This document shows, piece by piece, positions 11,965-64,000 of a DNA stretch of 64,000 nt. The notes below the pieces were generated by a model that saw only the letters and a list, made by a program, of their open reading frames with translations, made no database searches and was not told the DNA's origin. Every line of letters starts with the position of its first letter. Position 1 is the stretch's first letter. This stretch comes from Chiloscyllium plagiosum. Taxonomy: Eukaryota. Both the position numbers and the translations under genes were made by a program. Where the stretch lies: NCBI RefSeq assembly GCF_004010195.1, contig NC_057719.1, forward strand, positions 21,156,418-21,220,417, given 5' to 3'.

Positions 11965-12327
11965 TACAAAATTAAATATCACACAACACCAGGTTATAAT
12001 CCAACAGGTTTATTCGGAAGCACTAGCTTTCGAAGCGCTGCTTCTTCATCAGGTGGTTGTGAAGCAGGACCATAAGACACAGAATTTATAACAAAAGATT
12101 ACAATGATACAATGATATCTTGAACAAATGTAGATAGTTCCCAATCTATCAATGTATCATTGTATCACTGTAATCTTTTGCCATAAATTCTGTGTCTAAT
12201 GGTCCTGCTTCAAAACCACCTGATGAAAGAAAAGCCAGTGCTTCAGAATAAACCTGTTGGACTATAACCTGGTGTTGCGTGATTTTTAACTTTGTCCACC
12301 ATATTCCAAAACCAGCTCCGCCAAATC
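11965..12327. mobile_element. Palindromic PLE family B mini-insertion
   Basis: Inverted arms ~11965-12119 / 12146-12297 matching the pLTR of the PLE at 43880-46133; TSD CACAAT(T/C)TACAA. Confidence 0.85.
12021..12055 (-). ncRNA. Minimal hammerhead ribozyme motif (family B), intact core
   Basis: Minus strand CAC-CTGATGA-A-GAAGC(AGC)GCTTC-GAAA-GCTA-GTG. Confidence 0.75.
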
Positions 12328-12562
12328 ACAATCTACAACTTCCTATCGACTAGTCTGCACCTTTGTAGAAACTCACAAATCAGATTTCATTGGGAAGTTC
12401 CATGAAACTTCAGTCACCAATCCAATGAGCTATTGTATGTACTATGAGTAGTCACTCAGCTCAAAGCTTTCTAATTGTTCAGCATGCTGTGCTTTTATAG
12501 AACACTAATTTGGGAGGTTGTGGCATAGTGGTAATGTCGTTAGACTAGTAATCTAGAACGAG

Positions 12563-23780: not shown

Positions 23781-25956
23781 ATGATATAACTCCTGGCCAA
23801 TTCCAGAACTGACACCCTCCTCACCCATACTCACAACAGCCATCTGGTTCCTTGACCCCATCAATACCCACCTTCAGCTCACACAAATTCTCATACAACC
23901 ACTTGACCATCACCCTACCAGTTCGGTCTGGTGTTTCCAGACCCACCTACCCACTTACCTTGCACATCTACTTATCCATTCACTTCGCCCACTCTTTCAG
24001 TTATTAAAATTGGATGAGGAAAGATGATAGAGTCATACTTATGTCACTGTACTAATAATATAGGGTGTACTGGGACAATGGATTCAAGACATGGCACAGT
24101 TGGAGGAGTTTAAATTAAATTGCTAAATTGGAAACTTGAAGCACCAAGTTATCATTCATTGTCAAAGAGACCTGTCTGGTTCACTAATGTCCTTTAGGGA
24201 AGGAAATCTACCATTGTTACCTGGTCTGGCCAAAATATGGCCCAAGCTACAACAATATGATCCACTCTAACGCCTTCTGAAACAGCAGTTTAAATGTTCA
24301 GTTTAAAGGCACCTATGAATTGGCAAACAAAAAATGTTGGCCTTGCCCAAAAGGTCTATATTCCCATGAAAGAGTGAAGAAAGAAAAACGCAAAAGCTCG
24401 ATAATTTCCAGATGGCAACCTCTGCTGTTAAAAGGGCTGTTTCTGACTTTCCCGTCTCTGATTGGCTTCACCCAAGTTCCACAAGGGAGGTGCTCTCAAT
24501 ATTTTGGAAAACGCCAGGCTTGAAAGTTTCCAGAAGTAATGCAGAGCAGCAATCGAATCACTGGGAAAGTTCAAGCAGAGTACCGATCGGATTATGATAG
24601 TCATTCCTCAGAAGATCTGGACCCACTTTTGCCCAAAGCATGAAACATCAATTTAAAAAAATAAGTGGATGTATGACATTTCAGATCTGGTCTACCAAAG
24701 CAGACCATTTAAAAGCGACAAAGTTGAGTCAATGAACTTTACTAAAATAGACCCTATTGATGCTAGGGCATGCTTGCACACTCAAGAGTGAGACATATTT
24801 TCGTGGTTGTGGGTATGTTCGCCGAGCTGGGAAGTTGATTTGCGGATGTATCTTCCCCTGTCTCGGTGATATCTTCAATGCTGTGGAGTCTCCTGTGAAT
24901 GCTGTACTGTGTCTTCTGGAATGTATTTGGTTCTGTTTCTGTTGCTTCTGGTTGCCAGTTCCGGTTGTTCGTTGTAGTGGCCAGTATATTGGGTGCATGT
25001 CAATGTGCTTGTTGATCGAGTCTGTGGCTGAGTGCCATGCTTCTAGAAATTCTCTGGCTGGCTTCTGTTTAGCTTATCCTATGATTGTTGTGTTGTCCCA
25101 GTCGAATTTGTGATCCTTGTCATCTGTGTGTATGGCTACTATGGCTAACAGAGATCAAGAACACACACTAGACTATCAACACTATACCCACAGGGATCAG
25201 ATTCACAAAAGAGGAGAAGCCAGCATTCAACTCGGATATGATGATACAAAGAACACAGAATGGTGAATGCACCACAAAAGTGTACAGGAAAGCCACACAC
25301 ACCGACTGGGTCCTGAATTACAACAGCAACCACCCAAAACACACAAGAGAAGCTGCATTAGGACCCTGTTCAAAAGGGCTACAACACACTGCATTAAGGG
25401 AGTGCTGTGACAGAAAAAGAAGAACACCTCTACAGAGTATTTGCCAAGAATGGATATCCTTGCAACTTCATCTGCAGATGTCTAATAGACAAACAACGTG
25501 ACAAGGACACGCTATGACCTAACTCACTAGCCACGCTACCTTACATAAAAAAATCTCTCAGAACTGACAGCCAGACTTCTCCGACCGCTCGGATTCATGC
25601 CAGCCCATAAACTGACAGCCACGCTCAGACAACAACTCACCAGAACAAAAGACCCTATACCCATCATGTGTAAAACTAACGTAATTTACAGGATTCCATG
25701 AAAAGACTGCATGAAACATTACATAGGGCAAACAGGCTGACAACTAGCAATACGCATCCATGAACACCAACTAGCCAGTAAACACCATGACCAGCTGTCC
25801 CTTGTAGCCATTCACATAGACGACAGGGACAACACGATGGTCATAGGACAGGCTAAACATAGGAAAGCAAGAAAATTTCTAGAGAGTTTTGAGAAGATTT
25901 GTAGCTCAGGTTGAGGTTTTGGATGTAGGTTTGCTCGCTGAGCTGAAAGGTTCATT

Positions 25957-25998
25957 TCCAGACGTTTCGTTACGTTACTAGGTAACATCTTCAGTGGA
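25957..25998 (-). ncRNA. Minimal hammerhead ribozyme motif (family C), intact core
   Basis: Minus strand TCCA-CTGAAGA-T-GTTAC(CTAGTAAC)GTAAC-GAAA-CGTC-TGGA. Confidence 0.75.
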
Positions 25999-27284
25999 CC
26001 TCATGCGAAACAATGCTGAAAATTCCTGCTTTCTATTTATATGTTTGGGTTTCTTTGGGTTGGTGATGTCATTTCCTGTGATGTTATTTGCTGTGGTGAA
26101 GTCACTTCCTGTTCCTTTTCTTAGGGGATGGTAGATAGGATTTAACTCGATGTGTTTCTTGATAGAGTTCCGGTTGGAATTCCATGTTTCTAGGAATTCT
26201 CGTGTAAGTCTTTTGTTTGGCTTGTCCTAGGATGGATGTATTGTCCCAGTCGAAGTGGTGTCCTTCTTCATCCATATGTGAGGATACTGGTGAGAGAGGG
26301 TCATGTCTTTTTGTGGCTAGTTGGTGTTCATGTATCATGGTGGCTAGTTTTCTGCCTGCTTGTCCAATGTAGTGTTTGTTACAGCCCTTGCATGGTATTT
26401 TGTAAATTACATCAGTTTTGCTCATTGTCTGTATAGGGTCTTTCAAGTTCATTAGCTGCTGTTTTAGTGTGTTGGTGGGTTTGTGGGCTACCGTGATGCC
26501 AAAGGGTCTGAATAGTCTGGCAGTCATTTCCGAGATGTCTTTGATGTCGGGGAGAGTGGCTCGGGTTTCTGGACGTGTTTTGTCTGTATGTTTGGACTTG
26601 TTGCTGAGAAATCTGTGGACTGTGCTCATTGGGTACCCATTCTTTTTGAATCCATGAACACAGTCCACCAATTTCTCAGCAACAAACCCAAAGATGCAGA
26701 CAAAACACGTCCAGAAACTCGAGCCACTCTCCCCGACATCAAAGACATCTAGGAAATGACTGACAGACTACTCAGACCCCTTGGCATCACGGTAGCCCAC
26801 AAACCCACCAACACACTAAAACAGCAGCTAATGAACTTGAAAGACCCTATACAGACAATGAGCAAAACTGATGTCATTTACAAAATACCGTGCAAGGATT
26901 GTAACAAACACTACATTGGACAAACAGGCAGAAAACTAGCCACCAGGATACATGAACACCAACTAGCCACAAAAAGACATGACCCTCTCTCACCAGTATC
27001 CTCACATATGGATGAAAAAGGACACCACTTCGACTGGGACAATACATCCATCCTAGGACAAGCCAAACAAAAGACTTGCACGAGAATTCCTAGAAGCATG
27101 GAATTCCAACTGGAACTCTATCAACAAACACATCGAGTTAGATCCCATCTACCATCCCCTAAGAAAAGGAACAGGAAGTGACTTCACCACAGCAAATAAC
27201 ATCACAGGAAATGACATCACCAAAACAAAGAAACCCAAACATATAAATAGAAAGCAGGAATTTTCAGCATTATTTCGCATGAGG

Positions 27285-27326
27285 TCCACTGAAGATGTTA
27301 CCTAGTAAGGTAACGAAACATCTGGA
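27285..27326 (+). ncRNA. Minimal hammerhead ribozyme motif (family C)
   Basis: TCCA-CTGAAGA-T-GTTACC(TAGTAA)GGTAAC-GAAA-CATC-TGGA. Confidence 0.7.
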
Positions 27327-28160
27327 AATGAACCTTTCAGCTCAGTGAGCAAACCTTCATCCAGAATTTCTAGAAGTATGGCACTCAGCCACGGACTCCA
27401 TCAACAAGCACATTGACCGCCACTCAATACACCGGCCATTACAATGAGCAACCGGATGCAGCAGAAACAGAACCACATAAATTCCAGAAAACACAGGACA
27501 ACAGTACTTCACAGGAGGGTCCAAGGTACCAATGATGTCACCTAGACAGAGGACGAAACATCTGCAAATCAATTTTCCAGCTCGGCAAACATATCCACAA
27601 CCATGACAACTGGCATCTGAGCTACAAATCTTTACACAAACGTAAAGGGAGGTATACTGATTACAAACTCTGACACATTTTTTACTTGCTGACACACTAA
27701 GTTTTCAGTGTTGCATACAGTATATCATTAATCTTAAAAACTGTTCCATCTGTAATTTCATCAGCATAGGCTGAAATTTCTGTTTCTCACCCATGGTAAC
27801 AATTTGATCAAACAGTGACGCTCACCCCTGGATCAAGCTTAAAAATAACGAGCAGTTAATTGACATAAACTTGTTTTGTCAAATTGGAGTTGATGGACCA
27901 CACATTTGCCCTAAGAATGAATATACTTCATATATTTTCTAATGCAGTGGTTCTACCACATTAATATCTTAATGTATGAGTAGCTATTTGACCTTATGCT
28001 GTTCTGTATCTGTGTTCCACTTCTATGGAATATGTTTTCTGGAAGTGACCTACAGTGAAGGCATTTTTTTCATAACAGCTTGTGAAGCTTCTTTGTTTTG
28101 AAGCACTCTCTTGTAGTTTCTGTTGGCCTATCATGTTTGTTTTTAGGGTTTTTGTCCCTT

Positions 28161-43879: not shown

Positions 43880-46133
43880 GATTTGAAGATGCCGGTGTTG
43901 GACTGCTGGTGTACAAAGTTAAAAATCACACAACACCAGGTTATAGTCCAGGTTTAATTGGAAGCACACTAGCTTTTGGAGCGTTGCTCCTTCATCAGGT
44001 GGTCGTGGTCGGCTCAATCCTAACACACAGAATTTATTGCAAAAATTTACAGAATGTTGTAACTGAAGTTATACATTGAAAAATTGATTGTCTGTTAAGC
44101 CTTCCATCTGTTAGAATACCAGGACAGTTTCACTTCTTTCATGTGTAAATCACAAAACCTTTTTTTAAAAAGGTTGCATTCTCAGGTTAGCTGTTAAAAA
44201 TGGTGATAGCTAGACAATATGTTGAAGGTGTTAGCCCCCTGTGTTCTCTGTCTATGCCATGATGTTTAGATTGATTGTAATCTAAAAAGTCAGATAATGG
44301 AGTTTTGCATGAATTCATGCAGTTTTGAGCAAAGTACAATGTAACCCTGCAAGTACAAATTCACCCCACAAANNNNNNNNNNNNNNNNNNNNNNNNNNNN
44401 CAATGGTGGTCACCTGTAATGTGACATGAACCCAAGGTCCCGGTTGAGGCCCTCCCTATGGACTTAGCTATCAGCCTCTGCTCGGCCATTTTTCGCTGCT
44501 GCCTGTCCCGAAGTCCGCCTTGGAGGATGGTCACCCGAAGGTCCGAGGTCGAATGTCCTGGACCACTGAAGTGTTCCCCAACTGGGAGGGAACATTCCTG
44601 TCTGTTGATTTTTGTGCTGTGCCCATTCATCCGTTGTCGTAGCCATTGCTCTGTTTCCCCAATGTACAATATCTCCGGGCATCCTTGCCAGACAACGTTG
44701 ATTGAGTCACATGAGTACCTGCCATGTACAAGGTTGGAGGTGTCCCCATGCATAATAGTGGTATCTATGTCCACACTCTAACACGTCTTGCATCGCCTAC
44801 CATGACAGGGTTGTATGGAGTTGTCCTGAGAGCCGGGCAGCTTGCTACGAACAACTATCTGTTTGAGGTTTGGCGGTTGTTTAAAGGCAAGTAGAGGAGG
44901 TGTGGGGAAGGTCTTGGTGAGGTGCTCATCCTCATTGATAATGTGTTGCCAGTCACGAAGAACATGGCGTAGTTTTTCAGCTCCTGGGAAATACTGAACA
45001 ACAAAGGGTACCCTGTCGGTTGCAGCATGTGTCTGTCTCCTGAGGAGGTCATTACGATTCCTTGCTGTGGCACATCGGAACTGGCGGTCGATGAGTTGGG
45101 CATCGTACCCCGTTCTTGTGAGGGCATCCCTGAGTACTTCCAGGTGTCTGTCACGTTCCTCCTCATCTGAGCAGATCCGGTGTACGCGTAGGGCTTGTCC
45201 ATATGGGATGGCTGTTTTAATATGTTTTGGGTGGAAGCTGGAGAAGTGAAGCATTGTGAGGTTGTCTGTGGGTTTGCAGTAGATTGTGGTGCTGAGGTGT
45301 CCATCCTTGATGGAGATGTATGTGTCCAAGAATGAGACAAATAGTCGAGAGTAGTCCATGGTGAGTTTGATGGTGGGATGAAACTTGATGTCACTGTGTA
45401 GTTTTATCAGTGACACCTCACCATGGGTCCAGAGGAAGAAAATGTTGTCAATGTACCTAGTGTATAATGTTGGTTGGAGATCCTGCATAGAGCAGAAGTC
45501 TTGTTTGAACCTGTGCATAAAGATGTTGGTAATATTGGGGTGCACATTTCGTCCCCATGGCTGTTCCACGGGGACCCTCACAGACTTAAGACACTCTGCA
45601 CTCACTACACACAAACATACACTTTCCCACACTCACAACCCCTAACCCAGACAGACACACAGACAGACAAAGACTCACATGCACACATATATTTTGTGGA
45701 GTGAATTTGTACTTGCAGAGTTACATTGTACTTTACTCAAAAACTGCATGAATTTATGTAAAACTCTGTTATCTCACTTTTTAGATTAGAATCAATCTAA
45801 ACATCATGGCATAGACAGAGAACACAGGGGGCTAACACCTTCAACACATTGTCTAGCTATCACCATTGTTAACAGCTAACCTGAGAATGCAACTTCTTTT
45901 AAAAAAATGTTTTGTGATTTACACATGAAAGAAGTGAAACTGTTATGGTATTCTAACAGATGGAAGGCTTAACAGGCAATCAATTTTTCAATGTATAATT
46001 TCAGTTACATCACACTGTAAATTTTTGCTATAAATTCTGTGTTACGATTGAGCCCTCCACTACCACCTGATGAAGGAGCGACGCTCCGAAAGCTAGTGTG
46101 CTTCCAATTAAACCTGTTGAACTATAACCTGGT
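43880..46133 (-). mobile_element. PLE family B (Neptune-like): RT C-half, Cys linker, GIY-YIG, 3' pLTR and an upstream inverted pLTR
   Basis: YTRYIDNIFFLW, HPKHIKTAIPYGQALR, PCHGRRCKTC, LYIGETEQ.LRQRMNGH; arms ~43937-44372 / 45690-46133; perfect TSD GGTAATAATCA. Confidence 0.9.
46064..46098 (+). ncRNA. Minimal hammerhead ribozyme motif (family B), intact core
   Basis: CAC-CTGATGA-A-GGAGC(GAC)GCTCC-GAAA-GCTA-GTG. Confidence 0.75.
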
Positions 46134-54561: not shown

Positions 54562-55350
54562 GTAGAACATAAGAACTAAGAGTAGGCCATCTGCCCCTTC
54601 GAGCCCACTCAGCCATTCAATAAGACCACGGCTGACCTTTTTGTGGCCTCAGATCAACTGACCCACCCTCTCAACATAACCCATAATTCCTTTACTGCTC
54701 AAAAACCTATCTATCTGAGCTTTAAAAGCATTTACTGAGGAAGCCTCAACTACTTCACTGGGCAGGGAATTCCACAGATTCACAACGCTATGGGTGAAGA
54801 AGTTCCTTCTCAATTCAGCCCTAAATCTGCTCCCCCTAATTTTGAGGCTATGCCCTCTGGTCCTAGTTTCACCTGCCAGTGGAAACATCCTCTCTCCTTA
54901 TTCCCTTCATAATTTTATACATTTTTTTTAAGATCCCCCCCCCCGCCGATTCTTCTAAATTCCGATGAATATAATCCCAGCCTACTCAGTCTCTCCTCAT
55001 AAGTCAGCCCCTTCAACTCCGGAATCAACCTAGTGAACTTCTGCTGCACCCCCTTCAGTGCCAGTACATCCTTCCTCAAGTAAGGAAACCAAACCTTCAC
55101 ACAGTGCTCCAGGTTGCCTTACCAGCAGCTTGTATAGCTGTAACACAACCTCCCTACTTTTAAACTCAATCCCTTTAGCAATGAAGGACAAAATTCCATT
55201 TACCTTCTTAATTACCTGTTGAGATCCCAACACTGATACCTGAGGCACACTGATTGCCAAACAGAAAAGCACTAATTTATCGCCAATCTTTGCTTTCTGT
55301 TAGTTAACCAATCAACCTATGCTCATACATTGCCCATAACACCTTGCAGA
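54562..55350 (-). mobile_element. CR1 3' fragment
   Basis: IKKVNGILSFIAKGIEFKSREV..YEERLSRLGLYS..TRGHSLKIRG; AGAACATAAGAAC tail. Confidence 0.85.
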
Positions 55351-57857
55351 AGCAATACATAACTGCAGATTAGCAGTTCATTATGAATATCACAAAATTG
55401 TTTCAAAAACAAGATCAAAGAAATAGTTATTAAAATATTGAGCACAAATACAAGACATATGCAAGATTTTTTGTTGAGCAGTTTGCCTTTATTCTAACTT
55501 GCCATTATCATAATGTGGTTATTGACTGATGTTTCGGTTGCCATAGACATGGTCTGTTCGGAGGTATGTAGTATGTAATCTTTCAAGCAGTTGTACTTTT
55601 ATCCTGGAGGTCCCCTCATGGTAGCAGAGGATCTGTTCAGAACATTAATCAAGAGAATGATAATTAGCTCATGCTTGTTCCCTACAACACTTATCAATTT
55701 AAAATGATGACTGGTTTTACATGCAAAGAGATATAATCAGCAATGTACTGGCTATTCCTAGTTACCTTGAGGAGGTGGTGGTGAACTGCTTTCTTGAGCC
55801 ACATTAGTTCAGGACTTGAGGTATTCCCATGATGCTGTTCAGTCAGGAGGTCCAGAGTTTTAACTCCTAATGATGAAGAACTAGTGCCCAAGTTGGAATG
55901 GTGTGTGGCTTGGAAAACAGTCAATAAAGCAACTAATGTAGTCAGATTGTTTAGGTGTTTGTAACTGGTTAACAGGATTATTGTTAACAGGAAGTATTTG
56001 TGATTGCAAATATTAAGCATTTAAGTATTCACCTTTGAATACCACCAAACTGATGATTTATGCTTGGTAACTTCAATTAATTATTTTCATTGTAAACTCA
56101 TTAAAGGACGAAATCAATGAGAAAATTACAAATTGGCAAGATGAAGAGCAATTAAATAAATTGTAATATAATCAAATAGCAGAGAAGGTCAAATTTATCC
56201 AAACATTCTCACTCTAAGCTCATTGTGGGCACATGAACCAGATAGGTTATAGTGCAATGTATCCTGATCTGCAGTAAATTAACAGTGTATTAACATGACA
56301 TACCCCTTATGCTCCCTAGAATGTAACATTAGCGAAAAATACCCAGCGATTGAATAAACTAATTAATGTAGTAAACATAAATTCCCAAGCATTCCGTTAT
56401 TCATTGAATCAATAGACTTCTAGAACAACTGCAGCCTGGGACTGATTACAAAGGTCTTTGCTGACAACTTCAGATGATGCCGTGCATAACTTCAGCAACC
56501 TATTGTTTGACTGCCAGAATCTTGAGTAAATAGATGTTGCAGGCTGTAGAAGCAGACACAGTAGAACTGGATATTATAATCTATAAATGTTCTAATAGAT
56601 CATTTTTCCTCGTGTTCAGACTTCAAGGTCTAATAAAAGTGTCTTTCAAATTCCTCACAAATTTATAATATGGACTGACTGTAATTTCTCATTTGTTATC
56701 CTATCTGAGAATGACTATAAGCTGTCTATTTGGTATCCATGCTTATCCAAGGCTAGATAATGGTTTACAATTACCATATTACCACTATGACAAGTTAGAA
56801 AAAAGGCAAAATGCTTGACAAAAAATCTTGCATGTCTGTTGTACTTGTGTTCATCTTTTTAAAAACCATTCCTTTGATTTTGTTTTTGCAATTTTGTGAC
56901 ATTCATAATGGACTTCTAATCTCCAATCCTGCGTTGCTCCTTTCCACTTCAAAAAAATCCTTAAACAAAAGGACTTATTTTTAAAAAATACATAGTTATG
57001 CATGGAGAGAAAAAGCATATTGACATGCATACTGTTTTAAAATGCATCTATTGATTTTCTGTTGCACTCATATTCATTTCAAACGGAAAGCAAACCAAAA
57101 CAAAATCAGCTGGCTTTGATTTACTCCGAAATTTAGCAGGCTAGTGACCTTTCATCTTATGCCACTTTCACAGTAGCAGTTCCAGCCTTCGATCAATGGT
57201 AACAGACTGAGTCAGAGGGTCATGGGTTCTACCTCTCTCCAGTTACTTGGGAACATAATCTTAGTTGACACTTCAGTTCTATCTGAGGTAGTGCTGTGCT
57301 GACTGTCGTCTGTCACGGAAGACTCAGTAATTGGATATTTTCAACCATTTTGTGTTTTTCTTGCAAGATTACAGACAGAAAGTCAAAATATTTATTTTTA
57401 TTGAAGGACTCAATGTTTAGACTGTGGCTTTAATCAAATTCCATCCACATGTCTTATGCCAAAGGTAGCTTGGAAAAGTTTGTCACTTTGAAAACTCTTG
57501 TCAAAGAATCTAAAACTTTTAAAAATGGTTTTTAATGCACCAGCTACCTGAAATCCAGACCAGTGTATCCAATGGGCAGATGAAGGGAAAAGAATATGGC
57601 AAAAGCTAAATAACAGTAGGATTAACGATATCAAACAAAAAGGAACAATGAACAACATTTAATAGGATATGGTGGGGCTGGGAATAAAGTTAGTTATGTA
57701 AACAAAACAATCAAACCTCTCCAGAGGATTATTATGTAAGGCTCCGTCTAAATCGTTGATATCAGATGTGCATATTTTTAAAATCCATATTCATGTGTTT
57801 TGGGCTATGCTGCCAAGACCAGTATTTGCTGTCTATCCCAGCTCACCCATGAAAGTG

Positions 57858-58076: not shown

Positions 58077-59840
58077 TAGTCAACCACATTTCTGTGAGGC
58101 TGGAGTCACACGTAGGCCAGACCAGGTAAGGACAAGAAATTTCCTCTCTGAATGGCATTGGTGCATCAAATGAGTTTTCACAGAAATTGATGATTGCTGT
58201 ATGATGATATAGATTTCAGGCCAGACAGGCCAGTATTTTTAAGACAATTACATGGTATCACAATATATAAAGTTCTACTATAAAAGGTACTCACCACCCC
58301 TTCTGCCACTTTGTTTTGTCTAATGGAGTCAGTGCACTGTCTTCATTTAATTATTCAATGTACAATAGCAGCTGTAAACACAGCACCCAGACTATATGCG
58401 CAAATCTGGGATATTGTGGCTGTGTATGTAACTAGTGTTGTTAATAAATTTCATGATACCTAACACAACAAGAACCTGAGTTTTTGTGATATAGGGCACA
58501 GGTACATGGGAACAAGAGTAGGCCATTCACCCTGTTTCACAGATTAATATGATCCTAGCTGATCAAACAGATCAATGCCTTTTACCCTCATTATTCCCCC
58601 ACCCTTTTACATCAATGGTATTCAAACATTTTTCAACTTTCGTTTAAATATACTCAAGTTTCCACAGCCCTTCAAAGCTCATCTGGGATCAGTCCTGTGC
58701 TTAAGGATTGCTAAGATTAATTTGTAATGATCAATGGATGGTCAGGATTGTCAATGACCAAGATTTATTTCCCACATTGTTGGTCATTGCATAAACTTTC
58801 GAATTCTATTATAACAGATATTGTTTGAAATATCAAACCTATGGATGCCTGATTTATGCAGTTTCTCCATGAAGGGCCTCAATCATCTACAAGTGGAGCC
58901 TTAGAAAAAAGAAAACAACTTACTCTGTTTATCTTGGCTGTGCTGGCAGTCACATTTCACGTTCACTGCAGAGCTGAGATTTGGTTAAAGCTTGGTTAAA
59001 GTTTGCAGGCTTTCCACATTGTACTGGTGAGAGTGAATTGCAGGCACTGCCTGTATTGTATGCATCCCACTCGATCATCAGGCTCCATGCTGTATTGAGG
59101 TTCCACTCCATCAGCTTTGAGTCTCCCTTCTTTCCCACACGATCCAATTAAGTATTCATATCTCCAGTTTATACTCCAAGGCCCAGACAGTCCACATAGC
59201 CATATCTAATTTCATTTTCCACTGTCTCCACAAGCCCTGACAATACTGATAACTAAACAAGATCCTTCCTCCCACCTCATAGTATATTGGCTCCGAATCT
59301 TATCTCTAGAGTGGCCACCTTCACTGTGATTGTCGCCTCGGAATCCCAGCACAATGTCTTCAATCCCCACACTTCCTTTCCTCAGTTTAAGGTAATTCCC
59401 CTTAATGTTTATTACCTAGTCACCCAAGCCTTGCCCCTGGACTAACTTGGGAAGACCAACGTGAGCAAAATTGGATAAGATCCCTGAATGATTTCTGTCT
59501 AGCTCCCTAACTAACTTTTCAGCAATCCTTGGACTGGTTAGACTCAACCTGCAGAACTGACTGTGGCCCAATCACTGTAATGTAAGGACACAGAGAGCCA
59601 GGTCCTGACTACACCAAGCAGATGGCTGACTGTGGTTGAACCCACTAGACTGAGATCAGATGATACCCTTGACTGTCTGTGGTGGTGCTCCCTGGCGGGC
59701 TCTCAGCCGGAGGATTACTGTCCCTAGATTTTCAGACAGGTTTCTCATGGAAGCTGGAGATGTGACATTGACACAGCACAATGTCATACAGCAACATGAG
59801 CACCCTCTTGGCTGTTCAGTGCTGGGCAACAGGATAAGTT

Positions 59841-60200
59841 TAAAAATGTGTTGCTGGAAAAGTGCAGTAGGTCAGGCAGCATCAAAGGAGAAGGAGAATC
59901 GACGTTTCGGGCATCAGCCCTTCTTCAGGAATGAGGAGGGTGTGCCAAGCAGGCTAAGATAAAAGGTAGGGAGGAGGGACTCACCTTAACCTCCTTCCAC
60001 CTATCGCATTCCCAACGCCCCTCCCCCAAGTCCCTCCTCCCTACCTTTTATCTTAGCCTGCTTGGCACACCCTCCTCATTCCTGAAGGGCTGATGCCCGA
60101 AACGTCGATTCTCCTTCTCCTTTGATGCTGCCTGACCTGCTGCGCTTTTCCTGCAACACATTTTTAAGCTCTGATCCCCAGCATCTGCAGTCCTCCCTTT
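59841..60200. mobile_element. Palindromic PLE family A mini-insertion
   Basis: Arms 59841-59981 / 60030-60167; perfect 14-bp TSD CAACAGGATAAGTT (59827 and 60201); matches the pLTR at 4440-4660. Confidence 0.92.
59897..59933 (-). ncRNA. Minimal hammerhead ribozyme motif (family A), intact core
   Basis: Minus strand TC-CTGAAGA-A-GGGC(TGAT)GCCC-GAAA-CGTC-GA. Confidence 0.7.
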
Positions 60201-61781
60201 CAACAGGATAAGTTGCCTACCTTTCTCTCTGTGCAGAAAGGCATGGAAAGAAAAGCTATTGTGAGCTTGTAATTCCTCAATGAAGTAACAAATGCTCAAA
60301 AAAGGTAAGCCAAAGCATAGCCCTGTGAGTGTCCAAGTAAGCATAAAGAGAATGAGTGCTAAAAATAAGCTAAGACCCATGAGATGACCAGGCAATGACC
60401 ACTTGCAACAAGAGAAAGTTTAAACATTGTCGCTTGACTTCAATGGCGTTACCAAGACTGAATGTCCCACAATCAGCATCCTCGGGTTTAGCATTGATCA
60501 GAAACTGAACTGGACTAGCCCTATAAATAGAATGGCTACACAAGCAGGTCAGGGGTGGTTGGCAATTCCTATACATGCCAAAGATCTCTGCATAAGGGCA
60601 CAGAGTTGCTTTTCTCACACATTGAACTGTGAGAATGTTAGAACATTGTCTTGCATGAAATGCTGCATTTCTTTTGTGATGAGGTTGGAAAGGGTATGGT
60701 GGTAGTCAGAAAGTGTGGTGCTGGAAAAGCACAGCCGGTCAGGCAGCATCCGAGGAGCAGGAGAGTCGAAGACCATGAGCTCTTCATCACGAATGGGTGG
60801 TGGGGTGTGATGTGGTGGGGGACAAGCTTTCAGTAATCCTACAGCACTTAGAATGTCCTATTGTGTTTGTGCCATGTGCTTTGTATAGCAGACAATAGAA
60901 TAATGTCTAATATGTCAGAGGTCAATGCAGAGAAATCCATGACCCTGTTTGTCAGTGACCTCCATGTCCAACTATATCAGGGTCATGATAAAGTCGTTTG
61001 TGACTCCTCAGCTGTCACATATTACAAGGAGCTGCTTTGTTTCAATATTTCTCACAATGTCAATGCAACCATCTTCAATTAGTCTAGCCACGACTGGTTT
61101 AATAATTGTTGTAGTTGATTTTTAACAAAGTTGCAGAGATGGAACTAGATTAGCTTGGCATGGACGAATTGGAACAAAGGGTCTGTTTCCATGCGGTACA
61201 TCTCTATGACTCTCTAAGTTGAGAAGAATAATGGCACCAGCAAGCTCAGGACCTTTTTTGTCATTGGTTTAATGTATTTAGGTCAATGTATACCTGCAAA
61301 AACATTTTTAAAAATTCTGTACCAAAATATGTTCAAAACAAAATAATTTAATGGAAGGAGTCTGGAATAGTCTGAAGCAAGATTGCTTGTAGGCTCTGGG
61401 GTTGGAGTGTCCTTCAATGTATGCACTGCCTGGGACTGAGCATCAGGAAGTGCTTTCTGGCTCCATTGCCTTTGATGCCGATAAGCACATTCCCATAATC
61501 CCCATCCCCTTTGCCCCTTTCCCCTCCTATTATTCACTTCTGACCAGGAATCCAGCAATGGTATAGCCCTTACGTGGTTCTTCTGATTAGAGGCAGCTCT
61601 TAGCCAGTTTTCACTCCTGGGGTGCCTGATCCCAAGGAAAGGCCTGCCACTGGTAAGCCAAGTATCTGATTGGGGAAGATGCAACAGGTCTTCCTGAAAA
61701 AAAGCACTGCAGGTCTCTTGCTGACTTTCTCGTCAATGGCTGATATCCCTATTGCTTTCACACCCTTACATTTTTTAACCC

Positions 61782-62432
61782 TGATTTAGAGATGCCAGTG
61801 TTGGACTGGGGTGTACAAAGTTAAAAATCACACAACACCAGGTTATACTCCCAACAGGTTTATTTGGAAGCACTAGCTTTCGGAGTGCTGCTCCTTCATT
61901 AGACAATTGTGGAGCATCAACTCTCCTACTCCTCGAATGCAGCCTGACTGGCTGTGCTTTTCCAGCACCACACTTTTTGACCACCACCACACCCCTTCCA
62001 ACTACATCACAAATGAAATGCAGCATTTCATGCAAGACAATGTTCTAATATTCTCACAGTTCGATGTATGAGAAAAGTAACTCTGTGCCCTTATGTAGAG
62101 ATCTTTGGCATGAATAGGAATTGCCAACCACCCCTGATCTGCTCATGTAGTCATCCTACTTATAGGGCTAGTCCAGTTCAGTTTGCTGATTGTGGGAGAT
62201 TCAGTCTTGGCAACATCATTGAAGTCAAGCGACAATGGTTGAACTGTCTCTTGGTGCAGGTGGTCATTGCCTGGTCATCTCATGGGTCTTAACTTTTTTT
62301 TAGCACCTTGTGCTTGTTTGGACATTCACAGGGATCTGCTCCACAACCACCTGATGAAGGAGCAGTACTCTGAACGCTCATGCTTCCAAATAAACTTGTT
62401 GGACTATAATCTGGAGTTGTGTGATTTTTAAT
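61782..62432. mobile_element. Palindromic PLE family B insertion enclosing an inverted copy of 60321-60769
   Basis: Arms 61788-61916 and 62337-62431; 61917-62333 is a diverged reverse complement of 60321-60769; TSD TTTTTTAACCC. Confidence 0.85.
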
Positions 62433-64000
62433 TTTTTTAACCCAAGTTTGCAATCATGTTTGGGGCAGTGTGCATGTAAGTGGATACAATTTAAAAAACT
62501 TTTTTGACCTAGTACTTTAGAGATTAATACTGACTGCTTTTAATCTCTGGTTATGTATTGCTTAAAACCAGTTGCACTCAAGCCACAGACTTAACTTAAT
62601 GGTTCAATGACTGCACCCCAAAGCACATGACATTATTCGTGGAGTTTTGAGTGTTGAGCCTGCATTATGAAGGTATTAGATTAAAGCGATGTAGCAGATT
62701 TTTTCATGCATCTGACACTGCAAACAGGGTAATAACATAAAGACAGGACCGAAATTATGTCAGCAGGAATTGTAAAGGAAAATAATCTTTATGATGAAGG
62801 TTGAATAATCAACCATCCCTTTTCAGGCAAATATTCCAACCCTAAGGTTCAAGATAAATTTCTAAGGATTACCAGTACAAGAGAATGACTTCTTAATGAT
62901 GCCTTTGTTCAGGAGGGACACATCCCACGTTTTCACACATGCCAGTGATATAATAAAGTGACATCTCCAATGCTCCTGTGTAATCAAGTAAATCATTAAG
63001 TACTGTCCTGAATGGAAGTGTGTGACAACTTGACAGAGAGAAATTTATCATTGCTTTCTTGGGAATTAATGAAGTTCCCAAATTTTAATGAATTACTTTC
63101 AACATCAGCGCTGTCTTCCCTGAGCTATGGCATTGATTAATACTTCATTTTGAAATATTTGTGATACAATAGGCAGACTTCTTTGGACCTTTCTCCTCAT
63201 TGGGATGGTAGGTCCTCTGCAAAAATGTTTCTTTTGAAGTTGGCATTAATCTAACAAGGTCTTGGTTGACAATAAATATCCATGAATTTCGAAAATAATC
63301 AGAAATAAAGTCAAAAACGATGAAAATGTGGAGCAGGCCTGTCTACAATCGAAAGAGAAAGATAAGATGATGTTTACATTATGTAGCAGAGGTGATTGAG
63401 ACTTCAGTAACTTGCAGCATTGGTGCAAGGTTGTTTTCTGGGTCTTGTCCATTTTCTAGCATTTATGGGTTCCCCTCTAAGAGGCCATTGGCCTGGGAGG
63501 ATGCTGAACACAAGGCTCAGAAGGCTTCTTTAGGTGAGGACCAGACTGAGTTGAAGAAGGGTTAAATCAGAAACTATGTGAAGGTAGTGAGAGCAGCAGA
63601 TGGAGTCCAGGACTGGTGAATTGCAGCACTGGAGGGAAAAAAAACACTGAAATGACAGCCCAAGGACTATGGGAATGGTTAGATGACTGGAAAGAGAAAT
63701 TGGAGCAGATTTGTCAACTGGAGACCTAGGCAGACCATTTGTATAACACCCTAGACCCTGAGAAGTGAAAAGAGAGGAAGATTCTCTTCCTGCTGGGCAA
63801 ACAACATAACTTGGTTCCGTGATCTTGGGGAATTAGTACAGCTGGCTCCACCAAATGAACATTGTTACTTTGCTGTTGAGAGATCAGAAGCTCATCTTCA
63901 AAAGGTCCAGCTAGTGGATCTAGAGTGCCAAGCAAATGCACTTTGTCTTGTTTCTCAGAATACAACTTTTCCATTGAATTCTTCATTCAATTGTTTCCAA

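Follow-up and report, generated by a model that had tools for sequence, protein, structure and literature searches.

How does the insertion of a retroelement come to hold, between its two ends, an inverted copy of the DNA beside it? The question is raised by a unit in a 64-kb stretch of DNA (the window, i.e., the whole stretch analysed), in which two inverted ends, or arms, of a Penelope-like element (PLE) of family B enclose a cargo that matches a segment upstream. A preliminary description of the locus proposed that, during integration, synthesis had switched from PLE RNA to the local chromosome and then back onto its own cDNA, and that PLE insertion acts as a mechanism of local inverted duplication. 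The reading preferred here, with a probability of about 0.53, is that of a dead family B insertion in which two separately primed cDNAs were bridged by copying local DNA at integration.

The unit and its cargo

Table 1 Features of the unit, of its source segment and of a reference element in the window
Feature	Position	Strand	Description
Left target-site duplication copy	61771..61781	+	11 bp; 11-mer elsewhere only at 62433
Left arm	61782..61916	-	Family B pLTR end; 39-base tail at 61782-61820; mutated hammerhead core
Cargo	61917..62333	-	Copies 60321-60769 in inverted orientation; 9.6% divergence, deletions of 8 and 24 bases; contigs of organisms B and C also cover it
Cargo/right-arm junction	62334..62340	+	Imperfect microhomology to donor continuation, 5/7 match including 4 in a row
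Right arm	62336..62431	+	Family B pLTR end without tail; hammerhead core mutated; start is the base of a 7-bp hairpin
Right target-site duplication copy	62433..62443	+	Exact 11-mer
Source (donor)	60321..60769	+	Unique DNA, dispersed LINE-like piece (~60380-60555), unique DNA, family A PLE end
Family A PLE end in donor	60704..60795	-	Decayed minimal hammerhead; predicted cut between 60768 and 60767
Reference family B element, outside unit	43880..46133	-	pLTR ends around RT C-terminal fragment and GIY-YIG-like fragment; links family B to PLEs

Two real family B arms frame the cargo, as had been described, their bounds being revised from 61788-61916 and 62337-62431 to 61782-61916 and 62336 (possibly 62333)-62431. 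The 11-bp boundary repeat was also borne out: the 11-mer is exact, flanks the unit and is found just twice in 64 kb (at 61771 and 62433). It adjoins the left arm directly, and a single base separates it from the right arm. The arms lie head to head with their ends facing outwards, corresponding to the inverted 5'-truncated copy of an EN+ PLE unit, and the unit further shares with EN+ PLE units a one-sided tail of 30-40 bp (39 bases, in the left arm only) and a short target-site duplication (11 bp). A one-sided tail is also present in the family B fold-back at 11965-12328. In family B terms, the two arms begin 1-4 bases apart; they differ from each other at 14 of 95 aligned bases (14.7%), with one gap. 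The unit contains no ORF. Four adjacent changes in the left arm (61903-61906) equal the reverse complement of four neighbouring bases, which suggests one small template-switch event.

Family B was linked to PLEs by way of the reference element, which is broken by an assembly gap at 44373-44400. An ORF remnant between its family B ends (44403-45632) could be assigned, with moderate support, to the RT/GIY-YIG proteins. Atlas feature matches of 0.95-0.96 were obtained between the family B remnant and HTH_animal/RVT_1 and GIY-YIG clusters, and BLASTP gave an E value of 5e-5 to a fragment that itself has a sub-cutoff Pfam GIY-YIG match. Using Pfam at E<=0.01, 0 families were found in two family B fragments, and a third protein gave one GIY-YIG match below the cutoff.

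About 20 PLE ends are present in the 64 kb. In other family B copies the hammerhead motif is intact, as judged by pattern; in the unit the core box is changed in each arm, leaving both cores mutated. Rfam returned no match at the gathering score in the whole window and, at E<=10, 17 matches in 59700-62600, none of them a hammerhead. Most of these 17 were miRNA models placed on the family A palindrome and were dismissed as hairpin artefacts. The term "ribozyme-armed", initially applied to the unit, is thus apt for its ancestry but not for its present arms. Within 62336-62365, base pairing is predicted between the seven bases at the start of the family B arm and the 5' strand of hammerhead stem II; this alternative fold would inactivate the ribozyme. 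In one example, the copy at 12038-12067, both pairing partners are changed and the pairing is preserved.

Self-comparison of the window confirmed the inverted copy: 61917-62333, on the minus strand, is the reverse complement of 60321-60769, which lies ~1 kb upstream. The two differ at 40 of 417 aligned bases (9.6%, with a 95% interval of 6.9-12.8%), by 31 transitions and 9 transversions, and 8 and 24 bases of the source are missing from the cargo as two deletions. Within the 64-kb window, the source alone matches the cargo over its full length (E ~1e-145), the nine other matches listed being confined to the ~55-base family A end, and the junctions of the source mosaic recur in the cargo. The dispersed piece at ~60380-60555 is one that we take to be LINE-like, on the basis of a presumed RT C-terminal motif and its repeat depth. 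Because the family A copy in the source runs beyond the breakpoint, to ~60795, and the LINE-like frame in the source is open over the 24 bases absent from the cargo, 60321-60769 is the original. The reverse direction, with the cargo as the original, is ruled out by the same two continuities.

Copy number, related organisms and other fold-backs

Raw reads from one run of the same organism, together with contigs from two related organisms (B and C), were aligned to 60180-63179 at 80% likeness; the depth sample comprised 4 of 24 runs, and ~4% of the raw run. With a flanking mean of 0.78x over 13 unique bins as the reference, raw depth was 1.0x at 60280-60379 and 0.41x at 60580-60679, both of which are unique and at single-copy depth, 120-720x at 60380-60579, the dispersed LINE-like repeat, and ~65,000x at 60680-60779, in family A. 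Read depth thereby confirms that the source is a mosaic, as had been claimed. PLE ends reach raw depths in the tens of thousands, and the depth of family B suggests tens of thousands of copies. Depth in the bins of the cargo itself (34x and 9x) is uninformative, since repeat edges contribute to it.

A high-copy repeat is excluded for the cargo, and misassembly is unlikely. It is scarcely credible that the cargo belongs to a dispersed or segmental repeat or arose in assembly: a raw depth below 1x leaves room for 2-4 extra copies, but the unique donor bins stand at 0.41x and 1.0x beside flanks at 0.78x, whereas true repeats reach thousands. Moreover, the cargo is also covered in two other organisms, by contigs of which one crosses the cargo/right-arm junction, and a difference of 9.6% with indels rules out an artefact of collapsed reads. 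The mosaic cargo was not seen as a dispersed repeat elsewhere, a few extra copies being possible at these depths, nor was an orthologous locus that has the inverted duplication without PLE arms seen in the reads or contigs.

In each of the related runs, a depth of one contig was counted over most of the unique part of the cargo. Both related organisms have the cargo as well as the outer junctions of the arms. The contigs of B and C cover the cargo at 3.6-4.4% difference, with gap letters too few to contain the 24 missing bases. Those of organism B have 12 differences in 333 letters of the cargo interior and no gaps, and the 24-base deletion is therefore common to B. From the flanks, the B contigs reach 26-28 letters into each arm, slightly less than the 31 letters counted as a bridge; a contig of organism C crosses the cargo/right-arm junction by 31 letters. 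The left-arm/cargo junction is not bridged by any of the pieces listed (24 of ~380,000), and neither these pieces nor the joints listed (15 of ~2,470) included an empty site. The capture appears to be older than the divergence of these organisms (3-5% difference). Over 60752-61188, the net lengths of the C contig point to a ~5-base donor deletion at 60770 that may be confined to the present organism.

Eight PLE fold-back units in the window were chosen from a self-BLAST, four of them with spacers of <20 bases that were read by eye, and local cargo was present in one of the eight. As a general mechanism, local inverted duplication through PLE insertion would be occasional here (1/8 units), and a PLE-free case exists. 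The latter, at ~650-1784, is a younger local inverted duplication (2.5-5% divergence) in which 1322-1474 copies 1138-1290, ~175 bases are skipped, and 1469-1784 copies a stretch ending at 962; a 3' piece inside it is presumably LINE-like. As this case has no PLE arms, local inverted duplication is not PLE-specific. A third PLE family forms the fold-back at 25917-27366, which has 714-base arms of 95% identity with hammerhead-like cores on both strands and sits inside an older related element. An AT-rich inverted pair of 177 bases (55348-55524 and 56768-56941; 80% identity, 1.2 kb apart) may represent an old duplication or the ends of an element.

Origin of the captured segment

In the preferred reading, the 11-bp duplication would stem from nicks staggered by 11 bp, after which reverse transcription would have been primed by each nicked strand, at one or the other of two start sites separated by 39 bases. 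The tail is present on one side of the unit, and priming from two ends is suggested by a lizard PLE, the protein of which has been described to nick and extend both strands, with two RT start sites bounding the tail (PMC11167929). Two-strand priming as described for that element predicts the layout seen here, namely two arms with their 3' ends at the duplication, one tailed and one not. Each arm ends where a 6-7-bp hairpin closes at the 3' end of the cDNA, and this hairpin may have halted synthesis; its z scores of -2.9 and -2.2 were obtained on short stretches chosen post hoc, and the whole right arm scores -1.2. A bridge would be needed because the two cDNA ends are identical and cannot pair. 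One of them would have annealed by short homology to the local chromosome, ~449 bases would have been copied by RT or a host polymerase, and the extended strand would have been joined to the other cDNA.

The letters at the junctions are best fitted by the right-arm cDNA as the primer. The right junction has microhomology over 5/7 bases (P 0.013 against random window positions, a post hoc value); at the left junction, there is none in the present sequence, and it is precisely at this point that the donor has changed. The two bases after the cargo may be a decayed CpG of the donor family A copy, which would give an overlap of 0-2 bases; this CpG decay is present in 2 of 10 other listed family A ends. 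Alternatively, the left-arm cDNA may have snapped back onto its own resected strand, which would give an identical inverted layout. As in templated insertions, the donor is nearby and the source is single, although a few extra copies are possible. Counting against a two-ended bridge, the 417-base cargo exceeds most of the L1 templated insertions described, both in size and in donor distance.

The course first proposed, in which a single cDNA left the PLE RNA, copied local DNA and went back onto its own cDNA to form the second arm, is distinctly improbable. Snap-back on the own cDNA is described as the commoner class in R2 (PMC11371274), PLE palindromes have been proposed to arise by self-priming (PMC3846280), and inspection of the junction of left arm and cargo indicated that the donor continuation could pair with it over 5 bases. 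Such a return must, however, land within 0-4 bases of the point of departure and leave the 39 bases next to the primer uncopied, ending where the family usually has its second end. It also predicts another base at 62336 and requires two transversions within 3 bases. The right arm has the family B base at that position, whereas the left-arm junction and the source continuation have another, and with transversions at 0.02 per site, copying of the right arm from the left-arm cDNA is disfavoured; this argument concerns one base, for which the family consensus comes from one other insertion (2 arms) and at which the other subfamily differs. A templated local inverted duplication inside one PLE unit is what stands of the initial proposal, the return onto the own cDNA being at odds with the 39-base tail and the base at 62336.

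The time of the capture has been approached by comparing divergences, as suggested in the preliminary description. Arms (14/95) and cargo (40/417) do not differ significantly (p=0.14), nor do they at non-CpG sites (12/91 against 36/405, p=0.24). This is compatible with capture at integration, although the point estimate is higher in the arms (14.7% against 9.6%). Later repair therefore stays a real, if unlikely, rival: a spacer-less family B fold-back would have existed first, its centre would have been broken by hairpin or cruciform cleavage, and host repair would have pasted in a templated copy from nearby. Later capture has a likelihood ratio of 2.0, which falls to 0.5 when the 4-base cluster in the left arm is counted as one event. 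Arms that are older than the cargo by point estimate fit such a history, which explains the common arm start equally well; spacer-less family B head-to-head joints occur in the raw reads near this point (34 and 30 reads for two listed joints), and the duplication at ~650-1784 came about without PLE arms. However, 7/8 of the window fold-backs are without local cargo, including the one with 714-base arms at 95%, which would be expected to be more fragile, and a second event would be needed, whereas integration probably already offers an open break.

RNA might also have served as the donor, although we give this little credence. The RT extending the right arm would have jumped onto a local read-through family A transcript that had been cut by a hammerhead, copied it to its 5' end and been joined to the left arm. 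The polarity of the cargo fits such a transcript, and the predicted family A cut site lies 2-4 bases inside the end of the copied segment. The position of the cut is predicted from the rule for type I hammerheads, applied to window copies such as that at 59928 on the minus strand. By rough post hoc arithmetic, given the number of PLE ends in 64 kb, the chance of such proximity is ~0.3%. The family A hammerhead hairpin is weak in single-stranded DNA (z -0.3 to +1.0) and provides no obvious polymerase stop; a DNA hairpin stop at this hammerhead was rejected, its folding being no better than that of shuffles. Template jumps of PLEs onto read-through transcripts have been proposed (PMC3846280). 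The cargo, however, passes the cut site by at least 2 bases, which would require untemplated bases or a later small deletion, and the family A hammerhead in the donor is now decayed. Since at least 2 bases of the cargo would be absent from the cut RNA, DNA is the simpler donor. It is a doubtful proposition that the PLE RT jumps onto nascent transcripts cut by resident PLE hammerheads, with older ribozyme-bearing ends setting the duplicated segments; if this were true, PLE-rich genomes would gain local inverted duplications with ribozyme-set boundaries.

Comparison with known systems

The formation of PLE tandem and inverted insertions has been described as open (PMC8557442). Captures such as the present one preserve the two arms separately, as fossils, and allow models to be compared base by base. 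This capture leans towards priming from both nicked strands over fold-back self-priming. As a single locus, and judging by its sequence apparently an old and inert scar, it cannot settle the models of PLE integration. Should such captures prove common, PLEs would steadily generate local inverted duplications, from a few hundred bases to kilobases in length, and these could take in exons or promoters. No description of local inverted cargo at a PLE head-to-head junction was found in the literature searched, the coverage of which is incomplete, and an earlier report is possible; the parts consulted of 10.64898/2026.07.22.740005 and PMC6155905 contain nothing on local capture.

The EN+ PLE unit is described as having an inverted 5'-truncated copy, a one-sided tail of 30-40 bp and a pLTR with a minimal hammerhead (Craig et al. 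2021, PMC8557442; Frangieh et al. 2024, PMC11167929). In these accounts it resembles the present unit in the inverted truncated copy and the one-sided tail, the hammerhead motif being intact by pattern in other family B copies and mutated in both arms here, and a short target-site duplication is common to the present unit and rotifer PLE units. The inverted copy of the canonical unit is immediately adjacent, whereas here 417 bases of local host DNA are located at the inversion point and no ORF remains in the unit. Penelope captures in Adineta vaga also have non-PLE DNA framed by pLTRs and a target-site duplication (Arkhipova et al. 2013, PMC3846280), and host DNA is framed in this way in the unit under study. 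In the worked example from A. vaga, a gene between direct pLTRs was moved to a new location, and no local donor or head-to-head cargo is named there. By contrast, the arms here are head to head, the donor is 1 kb away, and there is no sign of spread.

At the 5' junction of R2, the 3' end of the cDNA has been reported to prime extra synthesis on its own cDNA and, less often, on nearby target DNA (Zhang et al. 2024, PMC11371274). The same priming of extra synthesis before joining would apply here. The R2 work described concerns an engineered element in cultured human cells, with one TPRT end and rDNA as the target, whereas the present case involves two element ends and a fixed germ-line insertion. 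Templated insertions of L1, as reported, are mostly <250 bp and come from within 15 bp of the site or are continuous with the break end (10.1101/2024.08.27.596794, 10.1101/2024.12.14.628481). Extension of both nicked ends, copying in of nearby DNA and an inverted duplication near the site are features in which L1 and the present unit, as read here, are alike; the short microhomology of L1 has an imperfect counterpart at the right junction of the unit. Twin priming of L1 yields complementary parts of one RNA, whereas both arms of this unit copy one stretch (10.1101/2024.08.27.596794, 10.1101/2024.12.14.628481). The unit is likely to be a variant of known retrotransposon junction repair, by snap-back or templated filler, inside the canonical PLE layout.
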